A stretch of 64,000 nucleotides of DNA, from positions 4,796 to 68,795 of the forward strand of contig CACYHO010000004.1 in NCBI GenBank assembly GCA_902774285.1, read 5' to 3'. Positions 3,441 through 61,942 of this stretch are shown piece by piece. The notes below the pieces were generated by a model. The model worked only from the letters and a program-made list of their open reading frames with translations. It was not told the origin of the DNA and did not search any database. How positions within the stretch are numbered: position 1 is the first letter of the stretch; every line of letters starts with the position of its first letter. The DNA is from an uncultured Pseudomonadota bacterium. Its GTDB lineage: Bacteria > Pseudomonadota > Alphaproteobacteria > Rs-D84. The position numbers and the translations under genes are program-made.

Positions 3441-3517
3441 CGGGGTGTAGCTCAGTCTGGTAGAGTACTTGGTTTGGGACCAAGGTGTCGAAGGTTCGAA
3501 TCCTTTCGCCCCGACCA
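3441..3517 (+). tRNA. tRNA-Pro (anticodon UGG), CCA encoded
   Basis: Hand-folded cloverleaf. Acceptor CGGGGTG/CGCCCCG, D-arm GCTCAGTCTGGTAGAGT, anticodon stem CTTGG/CCAAG with loop TTTGGGA, T-arm GAAGG-TTCGAAT-CCTTT, 3' ACCA. Confidence 0.93.
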
Positions 3518-3532
3518 GATTAAATAAAAAAG

Positions 3533-3555
3533 ACCGCCATGTGCGGTATTTTTTA
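3533..3555 (+). terminator. Terminator hairpin after tRNA-Pro
   Basis: ACCGC-catgt-GCGGT followed by ATTTTTT. Confidence 0.6.
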
Positions 3556-3572
3556 TTTAACCTTTTTGGTTC

Positions 3573-3715
3573 GTCGGGACGAAAGGATGCGCCAGAGCGC
3601 AGCGCATGGCGTATACGAAGACGAACAATTAACAACCATTCAAAAACGGATATGTTTAATAGAGTTTTTGTTTATGGTTGGTTTATTGTTTGTCGAGGAG
3701 GAATCGCCCCGACCA
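3573..3715. repeat. tRNA-end-bracketed element, copy 1 (113-bp conserved core at 3585-3697)
   Basis: The core has 3 mismatches to 31364-31476. The left flank 3573-3587 is the reverse complement of the tRNA-Pro 3' end 3501-3515 (14/15). The right flank 3705-3715 is a direct copy of tRNA-Pro 3507-3517 (11/11). Confidence 0.85.
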
Positions 3716-3759
3716 CGAAATTCAAACCACCACTTTTGTGGTGGTTTTAATTTTGTGTT

Positions 3760-3966
3760 GGGCGAAAAGGATTTTTAGAACATTCGGGAAGAAGGTTCGA
3801 CCCGCCGGCGAAAGGCAGACGGAAGTATGCCGGTGAGCATAGCGAATGAGCCAAGGGAGTGAAGCGAAGCGGAACAATCCTTTCGCCCTACTTTTTTATT
3901 ATTGTGTATCGAGGCAGGAATCGACCCGACCACGAAATTCAAAACCGCCACTAAGGGCGGTTTTTT
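3760..3966. repeat. Variant or degenerate second unit carrying further tRNA-Pro 3'-end fragments
   Basis: 3760-3772 is roughly an inverted copy of ATCCTTTCGCCC. 3876-3888 is a direct 13/13 copy of tRNA-Pro 3499-3511. 3906-3966 repeats the right end of copy 1 (GTCGAGGnGGAATCGnCCCGACCACGAAATTCAAA plus a terminator hairpin with compensatory stem changes). Confidence 0.7.
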
Positions 3967-3989
3967 GTTTGTATTCCTATATCTTCGCT

Positions 3990-4043
3990 GAGTTCGAGAG
4001 TTATGTTTTTCAAAAATGCTATTTTTAGCCTATTTGCGAACTT
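3990..4043. repeat. Hairpin module A (GAGTTCGAGAG ... GCGAACTT)
   Basis: About 54-bp unit, similar to 4490-4542 and 31550-31602. AGTTCG/CGAACT arms surround a T-rich loop of about 35 nt. Confidence 0.7.
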
Positions 4044-4051
4044 TTACAAAC

Positions 4052-4079
4052 TTGACAAATGCAGATAGTGTCCTATAAT
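4052..4079 (+). promoter_or_regulatory. Near-consensus sigma70 promoter (TTGACA-16-TATAAT)
   Basis: TTGACA at 4052-4057 and TATAAT at 4074-4079, 24 nt upstream of the ATG at 4103. Confidence 0.65.
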
Positions 4080-4426: not shown

Positions 4427-4489
4427 AGGTCGTTAAACCAAAACCGCCACATCAGGCGGTTTTTCTTTTGTTTTCTAATACTTACACCA

Positions 4490-4542
4490 AGTTCGAGAGT
4501 TGTGTTTTTGGAAAGTGCTGTTTTTAGCCCATTTTCGAACTC
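4490..4542. repeat. Hairpin module B
   Basis: AGTTCGAGAGTTGTGTTTTTGGAAAGTGCTGTTTTTAGCCCATTTTCGAACTC, closely similar to module A. Confidence 0.7.
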
Positions 4543-5316
4543 TTACAAACACTCTTCCATAGAATAAGTTTTTCTGCCTACATATATTGTATTATTTTGC
4601 ACCTTTAAAAACACAGGTTCGTATTCAAATTCGCCGACATATGTTAAATCTTGTGTATTTTCTGTACTTTTGGTAAAAAGTATACTGCTGTCACCCATAT
4701 TAATTTCAGCAATATCTTCAAAAACCAGTATATTTTTTGCTTTAACAAATTTATTGTCTATTGTGCATCTTACATTTGAAATTTTATATAGTGCTTTATC
4801 ACATACATAAAAACCACGCACTGTTTTGATTAATTTGTATAACTTAGATTGGCAAGTATTTGGACAATTATACATACAATCTCGTTTGTTTTGATCCTCT
4901 ATATTCTTTTTTTGCATTCTTTTAGCCATTTCAGAAGAATAAGTTTTATTTTCATCAAAAACATGATTTTGATAATGTTCTACATTTGTCCAATCAGATA
5001 AAACCTTGTAATTATCTATTTCTTTAATTTTACAAAAACAATGCGGGCCTGTTTTATTACTATTTTCACTAAATTCTTCCGTATCCAAACACAAAGCATG
5101 GCCAATAACATTCTGGTCATACGATGTTTTGTTTCTTAATTTCCATTCGGTACCGTTTAGACCTTCCATCTTCTCTGTCTTAAGTGCCTCATTATACATA
5201 CTATAACCAATTTGATTGTCTTTAATCGGAACAAATTTTTCATCATCTTGGCATTCTGTAGCAAATACAACAGTACAAAAAAGCAACAATGTGAAAAATA
5301 GTAAGATTTGCTTCAT
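4543..5316 (-). CDS. Secreted cysteine-containing protein (hypothetical)
   Basis: 257 aa with signal peptide MKQILLFFTLLLFCTVVFA and multiple Cys. No motif I recognise. The stop codon abuts hairpin module B. Confidence 0.55.
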   Translation of the reverse strand: MKQILLFFTLLLFCTVVFATECQDDEKFVPIKDNQIGYSMYNEALKTEKMEGLNGTEWKLRNKTSYDQNVIGHALCLDTEEFSENSNKTGPHCFCKIKEIDNYKVLSDWTNVEHYQNHVFDENKTYSSEMAKRMQKKNIEDQNKRDCMYNCPNTCQSKLYKLIKTVRGFYVCDKALYKISNVRCTIDNKFVKAKNILVFEDIAEINMGDSSILFTKSTENTQDLTYVGEFEYEPVFLKVQNNTIYVGRKTYSMEECL

Positions 5317-26769: not shown

Positions 26770-29700
26770 TTAGAAGTTTGTTCTGAATTTCAACATACCT
26801 GTTTGAGATGTGTAATCTTCACGAACATCTATATCGTAATTTGCAGATACTTCCAAATTACCATATTGTACACCCAAACCGATACCGAATTCACCACCAA
26901 CGCGGTTCAAACGTTCACCATCTAATGTGTAAGCATTTACACCAGGCATTGTGACTGTTGCCACGTTTTTATCGGACATCAAGTCATATTTGATACCAGC
27001 ATTTAATTGTGGGACAAACGTTGTATGTTTATTTGCAACAACTTTGAATGTGTATTTAGCACCCAATATACCTGTCAGATAATCTGCATCATCCATATGA
27101 GTTTTTACACCATATGAATTTGCATAATCATCAGCTGTTACATGCATATAACGCAACCCCAATTCAGGTGTTATACCATTCTTGAAATCATACCCTGTTG
27201 CCAATGACCCACCGAAAGAATCAACACTGTAATCACCAAATACCATAGTATTATCAACAACAGTTCCTTTTTCGGAATAATCAGATGAAGTATAATTTGC
27301 GATGGCATTCAAATACCATTGTGCTGGTTTATATTGACCGTATACGAATACAGTGTTTGAATCAACTTCTGTATCACGTGCAGATCCATTGATATCTGAA
27401 TGAGCATAAGAATAACCAGCACCAATTGTCCAATGTTTATTCAAAGTTCCATCTAAACCAAGTGCGATTCCGCGTGTATAACCGCTGAACGCGTCGTTTT
27501 GTTTAGATTTGTTGAACAATCCTTGGGCCCAAACACCACCAGAAGTTAATTTAACATCACCACCGTTACGGCCGACTCTCATAGGTTTTGCCATACGAGT
27601 TGAAGCTAAGTTGACAACTGTGTTTTGAACAGATGAAGCGACAGATTGTGTAACAGATTCTTTTTCAGGATGTATTGCTTTTGTTGCATGTTCAACTTCT
27701 GCTTTGGCAGCAGGATTTGTATCGATTTGCGCCAATTTGTCTTGCAATTTTACAGACAAATCTTTCATCTGTTGTGATGAAGAATTCGAAGCAGAATCTA
27801 TAACATTGGAAATAACCGCCGCAGATTCAACGGCAATACCGTTTTCTGATGCGATATTTTCGACGGCTTTCGTTTCAGCGGTCACATATCCACCATTCCA
27901 AGTTAAATCAAAAAGTTTACTATTGGTAAACGCTACACCTGTATCTGCATTGGTGACATTCCAAACACCACGTATAGCATCAAGTTCTGTTGTACCACCA
28001 AATACATGGTATGTTCCGGTCTCTGCCATCGTCAAAGTTAATGTACCATTGCTGCCATTAAATGTTTGCGCAATAATTTGTGCTACAGATTCATCTGAAT
28101 CAATATCATCAACCTTTGTATTCAGCGTCGCGGTCATTTCACCATTTAATGTAATTATATTCTGGGCAATTGACGTAGAATTCAAATTCAATTTTGCACC
28201 AGAATCAATTGTCAAATGACCTGTACCTGTAATACCACCATCAACTGTTGTTGTTCCAGATGTAATATTCAAAGCACCAAGATTATGGATATCATTTGCT
28301 ACATTACCAGCTTTGTTATTGCGGAATGTATGAGTTCCAACCAAATTCACTTCACCAGTCGCTTCATTATAAATCGCACCAGCATTTGCAGCTGTGTTGC
28401 CAATAAATGAAGAACTGCCGTTCAGGTTCACAAGGCCTTTGTTATAAATAGTTCCACTGCCTGCAGATGTATTATTTCTGACAATCAAACCAGAACCAAA
28501 TGTGATGTCACTGCCACCGTTATAGATTGCGGTTCCAGTATTATCAGAAACAAGGGCACCCTTACCTATCGTTACAGTATCGTCGCCGTATAATCTAAGC
28601 GCGGCACCACCAGTAGCACTAGTGACTGTATTGCTAATAAATTTTGCATTGTCACCTATTGTAATTGTTGAATTACCGGCACCAGTACTTGATGTTCTTA
28701 TTGATGCCGCTTTTTCAGATGTATTACCTCTAAATTCAACATTGTTACCAATAGTAACATTATTTGAGTTGAATAAATATAAATTACCAAAAGGTGAATA
28801 GTTGTTTGTAAACTTAACATTGTTACCAATACCGATAGTTCTAGTTACACCTGTACCTTCAGAATAAATCGCAGCACCCATTTCAGAACCACCCGATGAA
28901 ACATCCAGGTCTCCTGGTTTTATAAACGCAGAATTATTATTGAATGTTACATTACTACCAATATTTAAATTACCATAATTCGCGATAGCGCCACCTTCTA
29001 CGTTCGCATAGTTTCCATCAAAACTTGATCCATCGCTTATAGTTAATGCGCCACTGTTGTATATAGCACCACCATGTAAAGCAGTATTATTTTCGAAATC
29101 CCCACCAACTGTTAAAGTCCCGGTGTTAAATATGGCACCACCCTTACCGTTAGTGTAAGTAGCCGCTGTTTCCGATACCGGAGTGTATGTTCCGTTTGCC
29201 TTATTATTGCTGAATTTTGTAGTACCATTTACATTGACTATACCTTCGTTATAAATTGCACCACCATTTTGTGTTGCTGTGTTACCAATGAAATTCGTAC
29301 CAGCCAAATACATACTACCATTCTGGGTCCCATTTGCATGGTTGTAAATTGCGCCACCATTTGCAGCACTGTTGCCTTCGTTTTCACCGGTACCACCAAA
29401 TGTTGCATCACTTACATAAACAGAACCTTCACGTCCGACACTGTTATAGAAATTATTATCTATCGCACCACCGGTTGTTGCTGCCGAATTACCTTTGAAT
29501 GTTGTACCAGTAATATCCAATGTTGCATTAGTGTTAGTACCTTGTGTTATTTTACGTGTTGCGATTGCACCACCGACCTCATCTGATGTGTTGTTGATGA
29601 AACTGCCACCTGTAAAGGATGTCACAGAGTCAGAACCCAAGAATATTGTTCCGCCATCTTCTTCGCCAAATGTTTCATTACCCGTGAATGTCCCATTTGT

Positions 29701-31098
29701 AACAGACATTCTATCAAAGTTCGCAATCGCAGCCCCAGAACGTGCACGATTTCCGTTAAATGTAGAACCAGAAATTGTTATATAGCTTAAACCTGGTGTT
29801 TTAAGCATACCATAAACGGCACCACCAACATCCGCTTCGTTGCCAGTAAATGTCGAACCAGTGATTGTCATTTCTGCGGTATCGCCATAAACAGTGAGTG
29901 TTGAAAGCGCACCACCAAGCCCCCAACCACTGTCCGTTGTAAGTGCAGTGTTATTTCTAAATGTCGAATCAGTGATCGTCAAATTGCCCGCCGATGCAAT
30001 TGCACCGCCGACACCTTCTTTCTTATAAGTTGAAGAATCTGCTACAACTGGAACTAACACAGAATTGCCAATGAATGTTGAATCAGTAATGGTTGCCCTT
30101 CCTTTGTTATAAATCGCACCACCGCTTTTCGCAGTGTTAGCTGAAGTATCACCAAATGTTGCATTGCTTAAAGACAATGTACCTTCGTTATAGACAGCGC
30201 CACCATTTGCATCTGCAGTATTGCCATTGAAAGAATATGTACCATTGGTCATATTTACTGTTGCGTTTCTTCCATTACGCGCAATGTTGTAAATTGCACC
30301 ACCGTGAATATCAGCATGGTTACTTTCAAGTCTTGTAGTACCGTTGATTGTTAATGTTGCATCACCATCATAATCAACCGCACGGTTCATAATTGCACCA
30401 CCATTGGTTTTTGAAGAATTGCTTATAAACCAATTGTTACCATATGTTCTACCAATAACCATATCAGCATCGATTGGGTTTTGGTTTTCTGCAGTTGATC
30501 CTTCTATTTCATAAGATTGGTTTGCAACTGCACCACCACCAGTTTTATATAATCTGCCTTCCTCAACCGTTGCATTCATGTGGTTACTCATAAATGAATT
30601 CAGATTGGTAGCCAAAAAAGAAACCGAACCACCAGTTGAAAAAACAGCACCACCACTTGCACTGGTTGCACTTGATAACACCTGATTACCCATAAAACTA
30701 ATAGTATTAGATTCTAATAAAACTTTATCAGAAGAGCCGTGTTCGGTACCATGACCGTATGATTGGTCTTTGAAATACAAACCCGCACCATGCGATGTAG
30801 ATTTATTCCCAGAGAAAGTCAAAGTTCCACCTGTGCTGTAAATAGAACCGCCACCATTAACAGTCAAAGCACCATAATCAGATGTTAAATAATTAAATGT
30901 TGTATTGCCTTCTATTGTCAGTGAGTCCCCGTTTGGCAAAGTATATGGTTCTTCAACATTACCTGAAATATGTACTTCGCTAGCCATCACAGGCATGGTA
31001 ATCAAACCCAATGCGATTGCATTACATAAAATACCATGACGCAGAACAGCGCGATACGCCGCGGTTAATTCTTTTAATGTGGTTTTGGATTGTTTCAT
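26770..31098 (-). CDS. Type Va autotransporter with a polymorphic-membrane-protein (Pmp)-type repeat passenger
   Basis: 1442 aa. Extended signal region MKQSKTTLKELTAAYRAVLRHGILCNAIALGLITMPVMA. More than a dozen GGA[IV]xN and FxxN repeats. The C-terminal beta-barrel ends in ...LKFRTNF. Confidence 0.88.
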   Translation of the reverse strand: MKQSKTTLKELTAAYRAVLRHGILCNAIALGLITMPVMASEVHISGNVEEPYTLPNGDSLTIEGNTTFNYLTSDYGALTVNGGGSIYSTGGTLTFSGNKSTSHGAGLYFKDQSYGHGTEHGSSDKVLLESNTISFMGNQVLSSATSASGGAVFSTGGSVSFLATNLNSFMSNHMNATVEEGRLYKTGGGAVANQSYEIEGSTAENQNPIDADMVIGRTYGNNWFISNSSKTNGGAIMNRAVDYDGDATLTINGTTRLESNHADIHGGAIYNIARNGRNATVNMTNGTYSFNGNTADANGGAVYNEGTLSLSNATFGDTSANTAKSGGAIYNKGRATITDSTFIGNSVLVPVVADSSTYKKEGVGGAIASAGNLTITDSTFRNNTALTTDSGWGLGGALSTLTVYGDTAEMTITGSTFTGNEADVGGAVYGMLKTPGLSYITISGSTFNGNRARSGAAIANFDRMSVTNGTFTGNETFGEEDGGTIFLGSDSVTSFTGGSFINNTSDEVGGAIATRKITQGTNTNATLDITGTTFKGNSAATTGGAIDNNFYNSVGREGSVYVSDATFGGTGENEGNSAANGGAIYNHANGTQNGSMYLAGTNFIGNTATQNGGAIYNEGIVNVNGTTKFSNNKANGTYTPVSETAATYTNGKGGAIFNTGTLTVGGDFENNTALHGGAIYNSGALTISDGSSFDGNYANVEGGAIANYGNLNIGSNVTFNNNSAFIKPGDLDVSSGGSEMGAAIYSEGTGVTRTIGIGNNVKFTNNYSPFGNLYLFNSNNVTIGNNVEFRGNTSEKAASIRTSSTGAGNSTITIGDNAKFISNTVTSATGGAALRLYGDDTVTIGKGALVSDNTGTAIYNGGSDITFGSGLIVRNNTSAGSGTIYNKGLVNLNGSSSFIGNTAANAGAIYNEATGEVNLVGTHTFRNNKAGNVANDIHNLGALNITSGTTTVDGGITGTGHLTIDSGAKLNLNSTSIAQNIITLNGEMTATLNTKVDDIDSDESVAQIIAQTFNGSNGTLTLTMAETGTYHVFGGTTELDAIRGVWNVTNADTGVAFTNSKLFDLTWNGGYVTAETKAVENIASENGIAVESAAVISNVIDSASNSSSQQMKDLSVKLQDKLAQIDTNPAAKAEVEHATKAIHPEKESVTQSVASSVQNTVVNLASTRMAKPMRVGRNGGDVKLTSGGVWAQGLFNKSKQNDAFSGYTRGIALGLDGTLNKHWTIGAGYSYAHSDINGSARDTEVDSNTVFVYGQYKPAQWYLNAIANYTSSDYSEKGTVVDNTMVFGDYSVDSFGGSLATGYDFKNGITPELGLRYMHVTADDYANSYGVKTHMDDADYLTGILGAKYTFKVVANKHTTFVPQLNAGIKYDLMSDKNVATVTMPGVNAYTLDGERLNRVGGEFGIGLGVQYGNLEVSANYDIDVREDYTSQTGMLKFRTNF

Positions 31099-31239: not shown

Positions 31240-31313
31240 TGGGGCATAGTTTAATGGTAGAACATCGGACTCTGACTCCGCTAGTGTTGGTTCGAATCCA
31301 GCTGCCCCAACCA
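31240..31313 (+). tRNA. tRNA-Gln (anticodon CUG), CCA encoded
   Basis: Hand-folded. Acceptor TGGGGCA/TGCCCCA with the U1-A72 pair typical of bacterial tRNA-Gln. Anticodon loop CTCTGAC, T-arm GTTGG-TTCGAAT-CCAGC, 3' ACCA. Confidence 0.88.
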
Positions 31314-31354
31314 AGATAAAATCAAAATGCCCTTGTGGCATTTTTATTTTATCC

Positions 31355-31495
31355 GAGGCAGCTGGATGCGCCAGAGCGCAGTGCATGGCATATACGAAGA
31401 CGAACAATTAACAACCATTCAAAAACGGATATGTTTAATAGAGTTTTTGTTTATGGTTGGTTTATTGTTTGTCGAAGACGCAGCTGCCCCAACCA
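31355..31495. repeat. tRNA-end-bracketed element, copy 2 (113-bp core at 31364-31476)
   Basis: The core has 3 mismatches to 3585-3697. The left flank 31355-31366 is the reverse complement of tRNA-Gln 31297-31308 (11/12). The right flank 31481-31495 is a direct 15/15 copy of tRNA-Gln 31299-31313. Confidence 0.85.
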
Positions 31496-31549
31496 CAGTT
31501 AACAAAATGCTCTTCGTGGCATTTTTTGTTTGGAATACAAGTTTTTGGC

Positions 31550-31602
31550 GAGTTCGAAAGTTTGTTCTTGAATTTTTATGTCGTTATTAACACTTTCGAA
31601 CT
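31550..31602. repeat. Hairpin module C
   Basis: Perfect 11-bp arms AGTTCGAAAGT (31551-31561) and ACTTTCGAACT (31592-31602). Same family as modules A and B near tRNA-Pro. Confidence 0.7.
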
Positions 31603-31687: not shown

Positions 31688-31711
31688 TTGGTTGGGGTGT
31701 GCGGGCGAAAC
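31688..31711. repeat. Left arm of a perfect 24-bp inverted repeat
   Basis: TTGGTTGGGGTGTGCGGGCGAAAC is the exact reverse complement of 33142-33165. It is GC-rich relative to its surroundings. Confidence 0.9.
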
Positions 31712-31717
31712 TTAAAA

Positions 31718-32881
31718 CTACTGTTGTAATTTTTTTATCAATTCAACAGGATTAACCAATACACATTTTGCTTTTTCGCTATAATAACCAGTTTCTAATC
31801 CTACCTTGAAGAATTCTTCTGGTGTAACACTTGGCTTTGCTTGTTTCGCCAGAACATATAATCCTGCTTCAAAAGGTTTCATCCAAGACCAACCACCATT
31901 TGCATAATGGACATAATCATTAATACCATTTGGAGCAGCAGTTGTTCTATGATCCATTGGGAAGCATAATGTATTTTGTTGCGCTTCTATTGGCATATTT
32001 CTACCAGATTGCCAATTCGTTTGTTTATAAGATTCAAAATTATCTGGGTCTTGCGATACTAATCTATAAACACCGTTATCATTAAATCCATATTCTTTAC
32101 CAATGCTTGTTGTTGTTACAAAAATACCAGCTTGTTTTGCTTTTTCTAATGCAACATTCCATATTTCTGGGTCACGAGACCAATCAGGAGCAGCAGACAC
32201 AGACACAACAACAATCTTTTCATTTTCTGGTAATGTTTTATTGATTTCTATTATTTTTTCCAATGCAGAAGCATTATATTTGGAAGTTCTGCTTTTGACT
32301 TCATCATTTTGAAATTGTCCATCGGTTAAATCAGCAGCAAAATAATATAGTTTTGCTTTTGGTGCAACACCAACCGTTTTTCCAACAGCTATTGAAGATA
32401 CGGCAGAACCATGCATTTCACCTTCATTGTTCATATGTTTTTCATTTAAAAATTCCTCATAATAAACAAGATTGTCATTATATTCATCATGTGGTGATAA
32501 TGGTTGGTCTATGATAGCCATTGACATGCCAGACCCATCAATCCCCATTTCGTGTAATTTACGAACATTTAAACCAGGATTTTTATGTTTTTCCATTATA
32601 GAATATGAATTAAAATCCACGGGCATTTTTGAAATATCTGTTGGAAATCTTGTTCCATTATCAAATGTAATTTGTTCTGCATTATATTGTGACAAGTTTT
32701 TATTTGCACAGTTTGTAGATCTGATATCTAAATCTTGTGTTCCTTCGGAAAGAGTCGGTTCTTTATTTTGCATAAAAGAATAATTAGCATAAGGTGCCAG
32801 TTTAGAAATCACCTTATTATCATATGCATATGCACCACAGCAAATAAACATAGATATTACTAAACAACATGGATTTTTCAT
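31718..32881 (-). CDS. Secreted subtilisin-like (S8) serine peptidase-like protein
   Basis: Signal MKNPCCLVISMFICCGAYA. Triad-like strings in D-H-S order: MAIIDQP, EMHGSAVSSIAVG, and GGWSWMKPFEAG (compare GTSMAAPHVAG). Confidence 0.6.
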   Translation of the reverse strand: MKNPCCLVISMFICCGAYAYDNKVISKLAPYANYSFMQNKEPTLSEGTQDLDIRSTNCANKNLSQYNAEQITFDNGTRFPTDISKMPVDFNSYSIMEKHKNPGLNVRKLHEMGIDGSGMSMAIIDQPLSPHDEYNDNLVYYEEFLNEKHMNNEGEMHGSAVSSIAVGKTVGVAPKAKLYYFAADLTDGQFQNDEVKSRTSKYNASALEKIIEINKTLPENEKIVVVSVSAAPDWSRDPEIWNVALEKAKQAGIFVTTTSIGKEYGFNDNGVYRLVSQDPDNFESYKQTNWQSGRNMPIEAQQNTLCFPMDHRTTAAPNGINDYVHYANGGWSWMKPFEAGLYVLAKQAKPSVTPEEFFKVGLETGYYSEKAKCVLVNPVELIKKLQQ

Positions 32882-33141: not shown

Positions 33142-33165
33142 GTTTCGCCCGCACACCCCAACCAA
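33142..33165. repeat. Right arm of the perfect 24-bp inverted repeat
   Basis: GTTTCGCCCGCACACCCCAACCAA. Its outer 10 nt, CCCCAACCAA, are identical to the tRNA-Gln 3' end plus one base (31305-31314). Confidence 0.9.
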
Positions 33166-43460: not shown

Positions 43461-44213
43461 ATGACGAAAAACAAAATAAAAACCTATTCTTCAAAGGTTT
43501 TGTCTGTTCAAGAATCTGTTGAAGAAAACAAAGCGATTATTACCAGATGCATTTCTGGGTCTAATATCAAAAGATTGAACAACATAAATTGGTTGCGTCA
43601 CGAAATTGCATGGAACGAACCACAAGTTTTGTTTTGGATGCCAAAAAACGAACAAGCACCATATTTTGATTACAGTTGCACCAAGGGTTTAGGCGACGCA
43701 TACGATTACATTCTTGATCCCGAACATCAAAAAGAAATAACAAAAACAACCATATGTGATGTTCACTGGTTAATCGCACATGACACACATATTTTGCCAG
43801 GGCAATATAGAACAGCTCCAAAAATTTTGGAAATAACTGTGAACGGTGGCCGACTTCATACACCCGACCCATCACTTATCCCACAATTGTTGGACAATGT
43901 TTTTTATGAATACAAACACAGCACAAAACCAGATCCTTTGCGCGCATTTGATTTACACTATAATCTTATTATGGTTCACCCATTTGATGACTATAACAAA
44001 CGCACATCAAGAATGATTATGAATTTGGCTTTGTTACAATGCGGATATCGTCCAATCGTATTTAACCGTAAAACAGATAAAGAAGGTTATCGCAAGGCAT
44101 TATCTGCAATGGCTAACGGAGATGCTAAATCTTATTACAGATATATGTACAATACGATGAAAGCTTCTCAGGATCAGATCATAACCCAATTAAGAAGTTC
44201 AAATATTAAATAA
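43461..44213 (+). CDS. Fic/DOC-family protein with a degenerate active-site motif
   Basis: HPFDDYNKRTSR occupies the position of HxFx(D/E)GNGRxxR. ATG at 43461 follows TAAGGTG. Confidence 0.7.
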   Translation: MTKNKIKTYSSKVLSVQESVEENKAIITRCISGSNIKRLNNINWLRHEIAWNEPQVLFWMPKNEQAPYFDYSCTKGLGDAYDYILDPEHQKEITKTTICDVHWLIAHDTHILPGQYRTAPKILEITVNGGRLHTPDPSLIPQLLDNVFYEYKHSTKPDPLRAFDLHYNLIMVHPFDDYNKRTSRMIMNLALLQCGYRPIVFNRKTDKEGYRKALSAMANGDAKSYYRYMYNTMKASQDQIITQLRSSNIK

Positions 44214-60841: not shown

Positions 60842-61942
60842 ATGCAAAAATACCTGAACAAAATTTTGTGCGGTGATTGTATTGATATAATGCGCAAAAT
60901 TCCAGATGCATCTGTTGATGCGGTTTTTGCTGATTCCCCATATAATTTACAATTGGGAGAAAAGACTCTTTATCGCCCTGAAGACCAAACCGCAGCACGC
61001 GCGGTGCGTGATAATTGGGATGCGTTTGAATCTAATGAACAGTATGATGAATTTACACGTCAATGGATGCGCGAATGTAAACGCATATTAAAACCAGATG
61101 GTGCAATGTGGGTTATTGGATCGTACCATAATATATTCCGTGTTGGTTCCATTTTACAAGATATGGGATTTTGGATTTTGAATGATATTGTTTGGGTTAA
61201 AACAAATCCAATGCCTAATTTCCGCGGAACACGTTTTACAAATGCACATGAAACTTTGATTTGGGCTACACCCACCAAGACGGGCAAATACACATTTAAT
61301 TATGAAACCATGAAGAAATTAAATGGCGGAAAACAAATGCGTTCTGATTGGGATATAAATATTTGTTTGGGTGAAGAACGTGTCAAAGACGAAAATGGAA
61401 AAAGTTTACATAACACACAAAAACCAATGGATTTATTGCGTCGCGTTATTTTGGCTTCTACCAAGGCTGGCGATATTATATTGGATCCATTTGTTGGTTC
61501 TGGAACAACAGCTGCTGTTGCCAAAGAATTGGGGCGTCAATTTATCGGCATAGATCGCGAAGAATCTTATGTCAAAGCGGCACGCGAACGTGTAAATAAT
61601 ATAACACCAATTGATTTATCTGATATTGAAGTATCTGCACCGAAACGCGATGCAATCAAGGTTGGATTCCGCGAATTAATTGATGCAGGATTGCTTTATG
61701 TTGGACAAACGTTGGTTGGCCCACGCGGTGATCGTGTAATGATCACACACGACGGACAATTGATGCATACGTTGTACGGCAAAGCATCAATTCATGTTAT
61801 GGCTGCACGTATTCAACACAGTGTAAGTTTTAATGGATGGGATTATTGGTCCGCACAAAAACAAGACGGCACATTGGTTCCAATTGATGAATTACGTAAA
61901 TATATTCGTGATATAAAACAAAACATCAAAAAAGCAGCGTAA
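60842..61942 (+). CDS. ccrM: CcrM-type (beta-class) N6-adenine DNA methyltransferase
   Basis: Near-collinear with the CcrM sequence as I remember it. Examples: ILCGDCIDIMRKIP, WVIGSYHNIFRVG, FWILNDIVWVKTNPMPNFRGTRF(T)NAHETLIWA, QMRSDW, HNTQKP, DPFVGSGTT. The catalytic tetrad reads DSPY rather than DPPY. Confidence 0.92.
   Translation: MQKYLNKILCGDCIDIMRKIPDASVDAVFADSPYNLQLGEKTLYRPEDQTAARAVRDNWDAFESNEQYDEFTRQWMRECKRILKPDGAMWVIGSYHNIFRVGSILQDMGFWILNDIVWVKTNPMPNFRGTRFTNAHETLIWATPTKTGKYTFNYETMKKLNGGKQMRSDWDINICLGEERVKDENGKSLHNTQKPMDLLRRVILASTKAGDIILDPFVGSGTTAAVAKELGRQFIGIDREESYVKAARERVNNITPIDLSDIEVSAPKRDAIKVGFRELIDAGLLYVGQTLVGPRGDRVMITHDGQLMHTLYGKASIHVMAARIQHSVSFNGWDYWSAQKQDGTLVPIDELRKYIRDIKQNIKKAA

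Follow-up and report, generated by a model that had tools for sequence, protein, structure and literature searches.

Two tRNA genes in a 64,000-nucleotide stretch of contig CACYHO010000004.1, from an uncultured alphaproteobacterium, are each followed by the same core of 113 nucleotides. We call the whole stretch the window. The core is the conserved body of a small, folded, non-coding and previously undescribed module that accumulates behind tRNA genes, and we put the probability that this module is mobile, structured and mobilized in trans at about 0.8. It belongs by kind with the small non-autonomous mobile elements, and it fails at least one defining feature of each known family that could be tested. 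Beyond the window, scans of genomes and metagenomes turned up at least some 140 further copies in Alphaproteobacteria of the rumen and gut, and it is the comparison of these copies with one another, and with sites that lack them, that carries the argument below.

Two copies of a folded module

The two genes, tRNA-Pro(TGG) at 3441–3517 and tRNA-Gln(CTG) at 31240–31313, are both on the + strand (ARAGORN, Rfam). The first-pass annotation of the window had noticed the cores that follow them, at 3585–3697 and 31364–31476, and their reported near-identity is real: they differ only at 3603 (C/T), 3611 (G/A) and 3697 (G/A). It had also described flanks that change with the tRNA, and these match as described. 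At the Pro locus, the left flank (3573–3587, GTCGGGACGAAAGGA) is the reverse complement of the tRNA-Pro 3′ strand at 14 of 15 positions, and the right flank (3705–3715, CGCCCCGACCA) is a direct copy of the last 11 nucleotides of the tRNA, 11/11. At the Gln locus, 31355–31366 (GAGGCAGCTGGA) inverts the tRNA-Gln 3′ strand at 11 of 12 positions and 31481–31495 repeats the tRNA-Gln 3′ end directly, 15/15. Shuffling the stretch between each tRNA and its core 2000 times never equaled the inverted matches. When a covariance model was run unfiltered, it detected two full copies in the window and no more, at 139.5 and 126.9 bits, both on the + strand; on the − strand it reaches 20 bits.

Read outward from the tRNA, the full module consists of a terminator hairpin, an inverted flank that we call X′, the core, and a direct flank that we call X. 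It starts directly after the CCA of the tRNA. All parts of the Pro module lie on the + strand, and the last 18 nucleotides of tRNA-Pro (3500–3517, ATCCTTTCGCCCCGACCA) are the source of both flanks. First comes a terminator module, T1 (3518–3566), with A and T tracts and a bidirectional hairpin at 3533–3547 that scores on both strands. X′ (3567–3588, TGGTTCGTCGGGACGAAAGGAT) inverts tRNA-Pro from about position 59 to 76, ends in GGAT and supplies the 5′ strand of a closing stem, P1. P2 (3589–3612) is a short GC hairpin with a CGCCA/TGGCG lower stem, a GA/A internal loop and a GCG/CGC tip. A conserved junction, J2/3 (3613–3619, (A)ATACG), which is also the recombination joint between variants of P2 and P3, leads into P3 (3620–3694), a long hairpin of 75 nucleotides, GACGAACAAT...ATTGTTTGTC, with an invariant apical AAAAACGG...GAGTTTTT (variant A). 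A purine-rich 3′ tail follows (3695–3704, GAGGAGGAAT), in which (A/G)AGG is conserved and the remainder varies with the tRNA. X (3705–3715) provides the 3′ strand of P1, and its CCA is the end of the module. The parts of the Gln module, also on the + strand, are a terminator module at 31314–31354 (hairpin 31324–31344), which likewise precedes a Gln-type unit in a related locus (L101); X′ at 31355–31367 (GAGGCAGCTGGAT); the core and tail at 31368–31480, with P2 at 31368–31391, then J2/3, and P3 at 31399–31473; and X at 31481–31495 (CAGCTGCCCCAACCA).

Each unit had been placed between two terminator-like hairpins, the second resembling the first. Our scan scored hairpins at 3533–3547, 3724–3747, 3941–3964 and 31324–31344. 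The Pro unit thus has its pair (3533–3547 and 3724–3747); at the Gln unit 31324–31344 was scored and the distal hairpin went uncalled by the scan. The resemblance holds for Gln, where the + strand terminator 3′ of the unit (31496–31535) is 78% similar to the post-tRNA terminator over 73 nucleotides, and breaks down for Pro, whose two terminators, first and second, are of distinct families. Two points of framing have to change. The terminator before the inverted flank had been left outside the insertion; it belongs to the inserted module, and T1, which is not the native terminator of its locus, is paired with X′ in four related loci as well (L005, L007, L072 and L088). The left flank is an inverted target copy, as claimed, yet it does not stand alone as a terminal repeat; it forms the outer arm of a single long palindrome that comprises tRNA positions 59–76, the terminator and X′, with its center at the terminator loop.

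The unit folds as a three-way junction (−55.1 and −52.2 kcal/mol for the two window copies, z about −5.8): X′ and X form the outer stem P1, followed by P2, the (A)ATACG junction, P3 and the purine-rich tail. X′ has an alternative partner in the last 18 nucleotides of the tRNA, with which it pairs across the terminator to give one long hairpin of −39.9 kcal/mol at Pro and −33.8 kcal/mol at Gln (31296–31367), with a z score of −8.3 at both. The pairing of X′ with the tRNA 3′ strand (Pro 3500–3588; Gln 31296–31367) and its pairing with X (3573–3715; 31355–31495) are mutually exclusive. In a read-through transcript, such a predicted exchange of partners would act as a conformational switch in competition with the folding of the tRNA. 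Most copies form P1, with a median duplex energy of −15.2 kcal/mol as against −8.1 for flanks given the wrong partner.

One of three explanations offered at first pass was that of a structured nucleic acid, and covariation backs it. We aligned 51 copies with MAFFT, blind to structure. Over these copies P2 and P3 are 96.8% paired, and 13 of their 28 pairs show compensatory double changes. In P2, CGCCA/TGGCG alternates with GGTCA/TGACC, GGTGC/GCACC and GTGTGC/GCACAC; the A, B and C variants of P3 differ in sequence and keep their pairing; and the tip of P2 accepts insertions of anywhere from 0 to about 90 nucleotides. The covariation score is 0.366, compared with 0.145 for shuffled alignments (none of 500 reached the observed value) and at most 0.074 with the partners slid. 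The + strand folds better than the − strand (−55 versus −47 kcal/mol), and G·U cells outnumber A·C cells by 37 to 15 in the pairs of the aligned copies. Together these suggest that it is the + strand, the sense strand of the tRNA, that is under constraint.

Clear rules govern the junctions. Among the tRNA-linked copies listed, X′ is the reverse complement of the adjacent tRNA from about position 59 to a point within 68–76, and its end is invariably GGAT, which complements ATCC at T-loop/T-stem positions 59–62. tRNA-Glu has ATCC at 45–48 as well as 59–62, and its copies carry two classes of X′, one ending at each. X is a direct tRNA copy of 7–19 nucleotides that starts at position 62–66. It extends to the CCA in 42 of 73 copies, and X′ pairs through the CCA in 11; with many copies ending before the CCA, we reject the idea of a tRNA-like, aminoacylatable CCA mimic. 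AGG, common to the element tail and the tRNA (..CAAGGCGAG), marks the 3′ joint of some Glu copies. Read on the other strand, the sequence complementary to the 3′ end of the element lies right against a terminator T-tract. Gln- and Glu-type copies are also found behind look-alikes of the last 8–10 nucleotides of their cognate tRNA (..CACAACCA, ..CCCTGCCA). In many Gln(TTG) and Tyr loci the distal X is replaced by a sequence that begins ATTCCAGAG.

As a family, the modules form a kit of exchangeable RNA-like domains. Short forms, such as those in the window, have X′ immediately before P2. Long forms have an added 5′ domain, AACAAGTAGATTT-hairpin-AAATCGTTACGG or CTATGAGTAAGCG... (L068, L038, L094, L048, L014 and L122), and at non-tRNA sites they are without X′. 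Forms with the full 5′ domain occur beside short forms with X′ in its place, and some modules have the 5′ domain and P2 without P3 (L117, for example). All combinations of P2 and P3 types are found, and duplications in arrays run exactly to the AATACG junction region.

Relatives, targets and signs of movement

Searching one genome per species with a 21-mer from P3, we found ten loci in 10 GTDB species, all of them different uncultured Alphaproteobacteria of the rumen and of the horse and human gut; the hosts are Candidatus Enterousia, UBA1218 and similar metagenome-assembled genomes. Metagenomes and viral contigs were scanned with a conserved pattern tolerant of stem variation. The metagenomes gave at least 120 loci and the viral contigs no match to this pattern, and we reject a phage origin. 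All carriers so far fall in one clade of Alphaproteobacteria from rumen and gut (Candidatus Enterousia and UBA1218-type assemblies).

The first-pass annotation had asked which tRNAs the core follows and whether its flanks always match. For the 142 matches listed, the nearest upstream tRNA on the same strand is Glu(TTC) in 29, Gln(TTG) in 18, Pro(TGG) in 13, Tyr in 8, His and Arg(ACG) in 6 each, Ser(GGA) in 5, Gln(CTG) and Ser(CGA) in 3 each, and Ser(TGA) and Gly(TCC) in 1 each; 18 matches sit at a contig edge and 31 have no tRNA nearby, at least two of these (L120 and L126) being chance matches of the AT-rich pattern within coding sequence. Among the matches listed, then, copies sit behind at least 11 tRNA species, and their flanks match the adjacent tRNA with two exceptions, L040 and L071. 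Polarity is strict. All 101 tRNA-linked copies listed are downstream of the tRNA and on its strand, none is upstream, and two apparent opposite-strand cases are convergent tRNAs on the other strand. There being no flipped copy among these 101, an inverton is ruled out.

Several lines of evidence support the first of the early explanations, a miniature non-autonomous element mobilized in trans. One is the existence of empty sites, for which the comparison with occupied ones is across species rather than strain-level. In L110 nothing but the native terminator separates tRNA-Pro from the next intergenic element, and the arrangement at tRNA-Gln(TTG) in L055 is alike. No empty allele of the window's own loci was found, the flanking protein having matched the source contig only. 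In occupied tRNA-Pro loci the native terminator family is always the most distal, with one or two modules between it and the tRNA, from which it follows that a module brings its own terminator, begins after the CCA of the tRNA and finishes at its own CCA. A second line is provided by arrays (L002, L052, L062 and L081), in which neighbors share up to 111 identical nucleotides, covering X, the terminator, X′ and P2, and differ in P3 type. A third is the presence of long direct repeats, perfect or with one mismatch, of 80 nucleotides in L068, 51 in L040, 48 in both L038 and L043, and 39 in L080. These are target duplications of variable length, as in eukaryotic retroposons, though not in all copies. 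Each includes a terminator, two of the five are at non-tRNA sites, and the repeat in L068 comprises a terminator and the last 35 or so nucleotides of an outer-membrane protein gene. Lastly, there is the breadth of tRNA species used, together with a core far better conserved than the genes around it: the window core is 97% identical to those of L004 and L007, whereas the syntenic MotA-like, OmpA-like and PHP proteins are only 55–73% identical.

No target-site duplication holds as a rule for all copies, however. It fails at tRNA-Pro, where the unit-side terminators are of different families and the native one is distal.

The Pro locus of the window preserves such a succession on the + strand. 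Behind the first module, the terminator module T2 (3716–3755, hairpin 3724–3747) opens a next, older one; T2 stands in identical form directly 3′ of tRNA-Pro in L004, L009, L028 and L061. The second module (3760–3932) is composite, and its fold is not significant (z −1.4). It starts with an inverted tRNA-Pro 3′ half (GGGCGAAAAGGATT...), then copies the T arm's 5′ half in direct orientation (..GAAGGTTCGA). Inserted exactly at T-loop 58/59 are about 85 unrelated nucleotides (..GGTTCGA / insert / AATCCTTTCGCCC), and the module closes with the remnant of a variant-B P3 3′ strand (TTATTGTGTATCGAGG) and X (CGACCCGACCA, 3922–3932). Relatives with T-loop inserts occur in L080 and L121, and T-loop 58/59 in copies of the tRNA 3′ half looks like a second insertion hotspot, for a different family of element. 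T3 (3933–3975, hairpin 3941–3964) is the native terminator of the tRNA-Pro locus; its family is the most distal in L087, L108 and L007 and the sole terminator in the empty site L110.

A module that moves in trans calls for an enzyme. We scanned 20 window proteins with Pfam and clustered about 590 open reading frames (ORFs) of at least 150 amino acids from 130 loci, 743 kb in all, and the window, inspecting the larger clusters by eye. The DNA read amounted to 64 kb of a 267-kb contig and up to 14 kb for each related locus. Only housekeeping and envelope genes emerged from these scans and clusters. The early statement that the window has no integrase or transposase is borne out for the 20 proteins scanned. 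Rfam 15, at gathering and at permissive thresholds, returned tRNAs only, the best other hits reaching 25 bits at most against thresholds of 41–100, a result that excludes a known RNA family. Full-text searches of the literature turned up no account of an element of this sort. At both window loci only the tRNA promoters score well, and no promoter belonging to the element was seen. A weak promoter-like site on the + strand in P3 (TTAACA-16-TATGTT, 9 of 12; 3629–3656 and 31408–31435) is conserved only via the conservation of the core and is probably due to chance.

How the module might travel

The explanation that we prefer, at somewhat less than even odds and from comparative sequence, is an RNA-mediated snap-back route, by which a SINE (short interspersed nuclear element)-like element would be moved in trans via its folded + strand. 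The element would be non-autonomous, and an enzyme encoded elsewhere would copy and paste it through a folded, single-stranded copy of the + strand. That intermediate would most likely be an RNA produced by read-through from the tRNA promoter and then cut back to the two CCA ends, which would make the element a SINE-like retroposon. RNA is favored because the module is co-oriented with a tRNA promoter and has none of its own; because its boundaries are two CCA ends, where tRNA 3′ processing would cut; because of the G·U bias; because the 5′-shortened forms and mosaics resemble products of copy choice; and because the target duplications vary in length. The G·U bias and the co-orientation are only indirect hints. 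New joints would arise by template switching at microhomologies, GGAT/ATCC on the 5′ side, AATACG within resident copies and AGG on the 3′ side. Snap-back would make or refresh the inverted flank: a 3′ end on the palindromic terminator would fold back and copy the tRNA 3′ strand, and the return of the polymerase to the element template at GGAT could account for the fixed X′ junction. Primary insertions would duplicate 39–80 bp, terminator included, and established modules would later spread among related genomes at the same tRNA.

Assembled into one account, of a bacterial SINE-like retroposon whose read-through trailer RNA is cut at two CCA ends by the enzymes that process tRNAs, reverse-transcribed in trans and pasted behind terminators while its arm is rewritten by snap-back, the proposal is tentative, and we would sooner bet against it than for it. 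Were it true, an 18-nucleotide arm complementary to tRNA would be rewritten at each new home, re-targeting the element to whichever tRNA gene it lands behind. This would be a self-reprogramming mobile RNA with a targeting arm taken from its target, with no counterpart among described bacterial elements. That it is something categorically new, a bacterial retroposon with a targeting arm rewritten from the target, seems to us possible but doubtful.

A number of observations weigh against this snap-back account. The core is separated from the tRNA by a terminator. Nor is X′ in every case newly copied from the tRNA of its locus: in L040 it is the complement not of its own tRNA but of a tRNA-Arg allele seen in another species (L043), and in L071 a G-type X′ and X adjoin an A-type tRNA-Glu. 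These mismatches imply that flanks can travel with the element, and snap-back is then not required at every insertion. The long duplications are confined to a minority of copies. At tRNA-Pro, the module carries its own terminator and the sole direct repeat is X (10–15 nucleotides), a pattern as suggestive of site-specific integration as of target-primed copying. The G·U excess comes mostly from one pair (27 of 37 cells); DNA hairpins also tolerate G·T, and the intermediate could be single-stranded DNA. Finally, neither the 20 window proteins scanned nor the ORF clusters inspected included an integrase, transposase, reverse transcriptase or HUH enzyme.

The main rival reading is site-specific integration of DNA via a folded hairpin. 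The element would be excised as a small circle of X, terminator, X′ and core; in single strands, the X/X′ stem would rebuild the duplex of a tRNA-gene end, and strand exchange with the tRNA gene would be carried out by a recombinase of the host or one acting in trans. Homology in X would confer the specificity, which could thus be re-set. CTX phage, with XerCD at dif, and integron cassettes at attC employ a folded-hairpin strategy. An attC-like site was indeed the second of the early explanations. As a matter of family membership it falls, the element having neither conserved R and L boxes nor a fixed closing stem, this being tRNA-specific, and no IntI being seen; as a mechanism, a folded hairpin as recombination substrate is a live rival. 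It accommodates the tRNA-Pro comparisons well, where modules start after the tRNA CCA and end at their own, X is the only repeat, and each new module appears to have entered on the tRNA side, displacing earlier ones and the native terminator away from the tRNA. The strict orientation, the very stable X–terminator–X′ hairpin, the off-target copies behind look-alikes of the last 8–10 tRNA nucleotides and the traveling flanks of L040 and L071 also suit it. The perfect repeats of 39–80 nucleotides of unique sequence (L068, L038) are unlike the products of conservative recombination, and junction positions vary and fall at microhomologies. Near-identical cores would have to serve at least 11 different tRNA sequences, there are no conserved boxes of attC or dif type, and a recombinase is missing from the proteins scanned and clusters inspected. 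On balance we think this route unlikely.

More improbable still is that the unit is a functional tRNA-trailer RNA rather than a parasite. Its 5′ arm would mask the tRNA's T-stem and acceptor 3′ strand, and a switch between the tRNA-hairpin state and the closed three-way junction might tune 3′ maturation or termination, or the unit might act as an acceptor-stem decoy; spread would be by gene transfer and homologous recombination at conserved tRNA flanks. The very high cross-species conservation of P3 and the junctions, a fold supported by covariation, the two strong and mutually exclusive pairings of X′, the strict downstream co-orientation and the lack of a promoter of its own are all as such a role would predict. 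Many copies, however, are without the CCA or most of X, those at Gln(TTG) and Tyr being truncated and continuing into ATTCCAGAG, and those at non-tRNA terminators have no X′. The 11 copies in which X′ pairing extends over the CCA have kept no free tRNA-like end. Selfish repeats typically show arrays, decayed copies and empty sites, as this element does. Function and mobility could nevertheless coexist, the two not being mutually exclusive.

That the units are decayed scars of larger islands, remnants like cis-mobilizable elements (CIMEs) with attL and attR arms fused after gene deletion, is very improbable: the tRNA 3′ end is directly repeated on either side, and the window does hold a 1.4-kb gene-carrying segment with 24-nucleotide perfect inverted repeats ending ..CCCCAACCAA, but at least some 140 copies share a compact 113-nucleotide body with covarying helices and none has remnants of element genes, the same core occurs at no fewer than 11 tRNA species, no integrase is present in the proteins checked, and a deletion scar would not preserve P2 and P3 pairing or yield P2 tips of variable length. 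The early caution against reading the repeats as a simple attL/attR scar was right.

We also rejected a retrovirus-like primer-binding site, in which X′, as an 18-nucleotide complement of tRNA 59–76, would be primed by tRNA with a stop at m1A58. X′ is a mere outer part of a continuous palindrome through the terminator; the second X′ class at tRNA-Glu ends at position 45, at the second ATCC; the apparent mismatch opposite position 58 stems from P2 stem variants; and tRNA-primed cDNA would invert the core at each cycle, where orientation stands at 101 to 0.

If confirmed, the module would show a novel means by which a very small non-coding element can colonize a genome, with tRNA ends and terminators as safe harbors and a closing stem borrowed from the target, such that one 113-nucleotide body would serve many targets. 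At about 200 nucleotides, and with clear junction rules, the module offers a defined system for studying template-switch, snap-back or folded-hairpin integration in bacteria. It points to a trans-acting enzyme in an uncultured gut and rumen lineage. It also explains the post-tRNA intergenic mosaics of terminators and tRNA-end copies, which mislead annotation and assembly. A homing arm re-specified from its target as template would be of interest for programmable insertion.

Known systems and neighboring features

The closest likeness in setting is to integrative elements that target tRNA genes, and to CIMEs. They, too, insert at the tRNA 3′ end, leave the tRNA intact with a direct repeat on the far side and accrete in tandem, and our two loci have the tRNA 3′ end directly repeated (11/11 at Pro, 15/15 at Gln), with L110 as a site without the module. 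Unlike them, our element is about 200 bp long, has no integrase, and places one core at 11 or more tRNA species; it also adds an inverted target copy that forms a hairpin, and some copies duplicate 39–80 bp of unique sequence. An integrative element with one attP for one tRNA is excluded by near-identical cores with matching flanks behind so many tRNAs, and the window proteins scanned and ORF clusters inspected yielded no cognate integrase of tyrosine or serine type.

CTX phage, integrative mobile elements exploiting Xer (IMEX) and attC sites share with the module inverted, target-like arms that could fold to mimic the chromosomal site and a structured, strand-specific body. The module differs in targeting the end of a tRNA gene rather than dif or attI, in having no XerCD or R/L boxes, and in arms re-specified for each target. 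For attC itself, the R″/L″ and L′/R′ boxes (RYYYAAC ... GTTRRRY) are absent and the base of the stem is tRNA sequence, such as GTCGGGACG/CGCCCCGAC or GGCAGCTG/CAGCTGCC, with no box in common. An integron is rejected as well, since intI was not seen and the "cassettes" between stems would be terminators only.

SINEs and other retroposons of target-primed reverse transcription, known in eukaryotes, are likewise short, non-coding, structured and dependent on an enzyme in trans, with variable target duplications, 5′-shortened forms, microhomology joints and mosaic members. Our element is bacterial, lacks an A-tail and targets terminators and tRNA 3′ ends; its RNA intermediate is putative, and snap-back would give it an inverted target copy, which SINEs do not have. 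We know of no partner reverse transcriptase for it. Tandem inversion duplications, which the Roth laboratory is said to have found forming by snap-back at quasi-palindromes in Salmonella, share the direct-inverted-direct arrangement of a short segment and junctions at natural palindromes (here the terminator and T arm). They differ from our modules, which have a conserved foreign core at the second junction and recur at many loci in many species.

Group IIC introns also insert just downstream of intrinsic terminator hairpins and contain an internal complement of the upstream flank, in the manner of exon- and intron-binding sites (EBS/IBS). The element, at 113–250 nucleotides rather than more than 400, has no domain V or VI, no Rfam intron match and, unlike them, target duplications, and so is not such an intron. 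Retron msr-msd RNA is similar in outline, with an inverted-repeat closing stem, one or more short hairpins and one long hairpin. We reject a retron, since what lies downstream is terminators, further modules and unrelated genes with no adjacent reverse transcriptase or effector gene; the element is multi-copy, with a locus-specific closing stem and no match in Rfam.

Bacterial miniature inverted-repeat transposable elements (MITEs) and palindromic repeats, among them Correia, RUP, ERIC/IRU, REP/BIME and the Rickettsia RPE (PMC2229807, PMC3184786), are small, non-autonomous, multi-copy, foldable and intergenic, as is our element. It is no MITE: its outer arms change with the tRNA, its own ends (GGAT.. 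and ..AAGG) are not mutual inverted repeats, and instead of a fixed short target-site duplication it has repeats of 7–19 nucleotides (X) or of 39–80 with a terminator. Its closing stem comes from the target and its polarity toward the tRNA is strict. Neither the scan of 20 window proteins nor the inspection of ORF clusters (743 kb) revealed an autonomous insertion sequence with the same ends. A palindrome-associated transposable element of IS200/IS605 type is rejected because left neighbors vary (GGAT, TTCGA, GCCA, CAAA and AGAA among copies) and long direct repeats are present.

The neighborhood of the modules has repeats of other kinds. Post-tRNA terminators fall into a few recurring families (GATTAAATAAAAAAGACC.., GAAAATTCAAACC..GGTTTTAATTTT, AAATAAACAAATCGGG.. 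and AGATAAAATCAAAATGCC..), which in the window (3518–3566, 3716–3755 and 3933–3975) and in related loci turn up behind different tRNAs and in differing order; terminators themselves appear to be shuffled along with the modules. Downstream of the Gln unit, a perfect 24-nucleotide inverted repeat (TTGGTTGGGGTGTGCGGGCGAAAC) at 31688–31711 and 33142–33165 brackets 1.4 kb that encodes a secreted S8-type peptidase (31718–32881, − strand) and a 68-residue membrane protein. The outer ends of the repeat mimic the tRNA-Gln 3′ end (..CCCCAACCAA), and its right end directly precedes Gln-type modules in L053, L079 and L096. The segment has the same layout of inverted target copy, cargo and direct copy, with genes as the cargo.

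Immediately upstream of the tRNA-Gln promoter lies the gene for a 1442-residue, repeat-rich protein (26770–31098, − strand) with internal DNA repeats; from its sequence it looks like an autotransporter with repeats of the polymorphic-membrane-protein type. The window also encodes a Fic/DOC-domain protein and an N6/N4 DNA methyltransferase with a RAMA domain (43461–44213 and 60842–61942), neither of them linked to the element. A further repeat family, ..TTCC(A/T)ATA.CTTC..GAGTTCGA(G/A)AGTT ... CGAACT.., at 3940–4051, 4439–4550 and about 31550–31602, follows the final terminator at each of the two tRNA loci and is found again in most of the related ones; one of its copies stops just before a consensus promoter, TTGACA-16-TATAAT, at 4052–4079.

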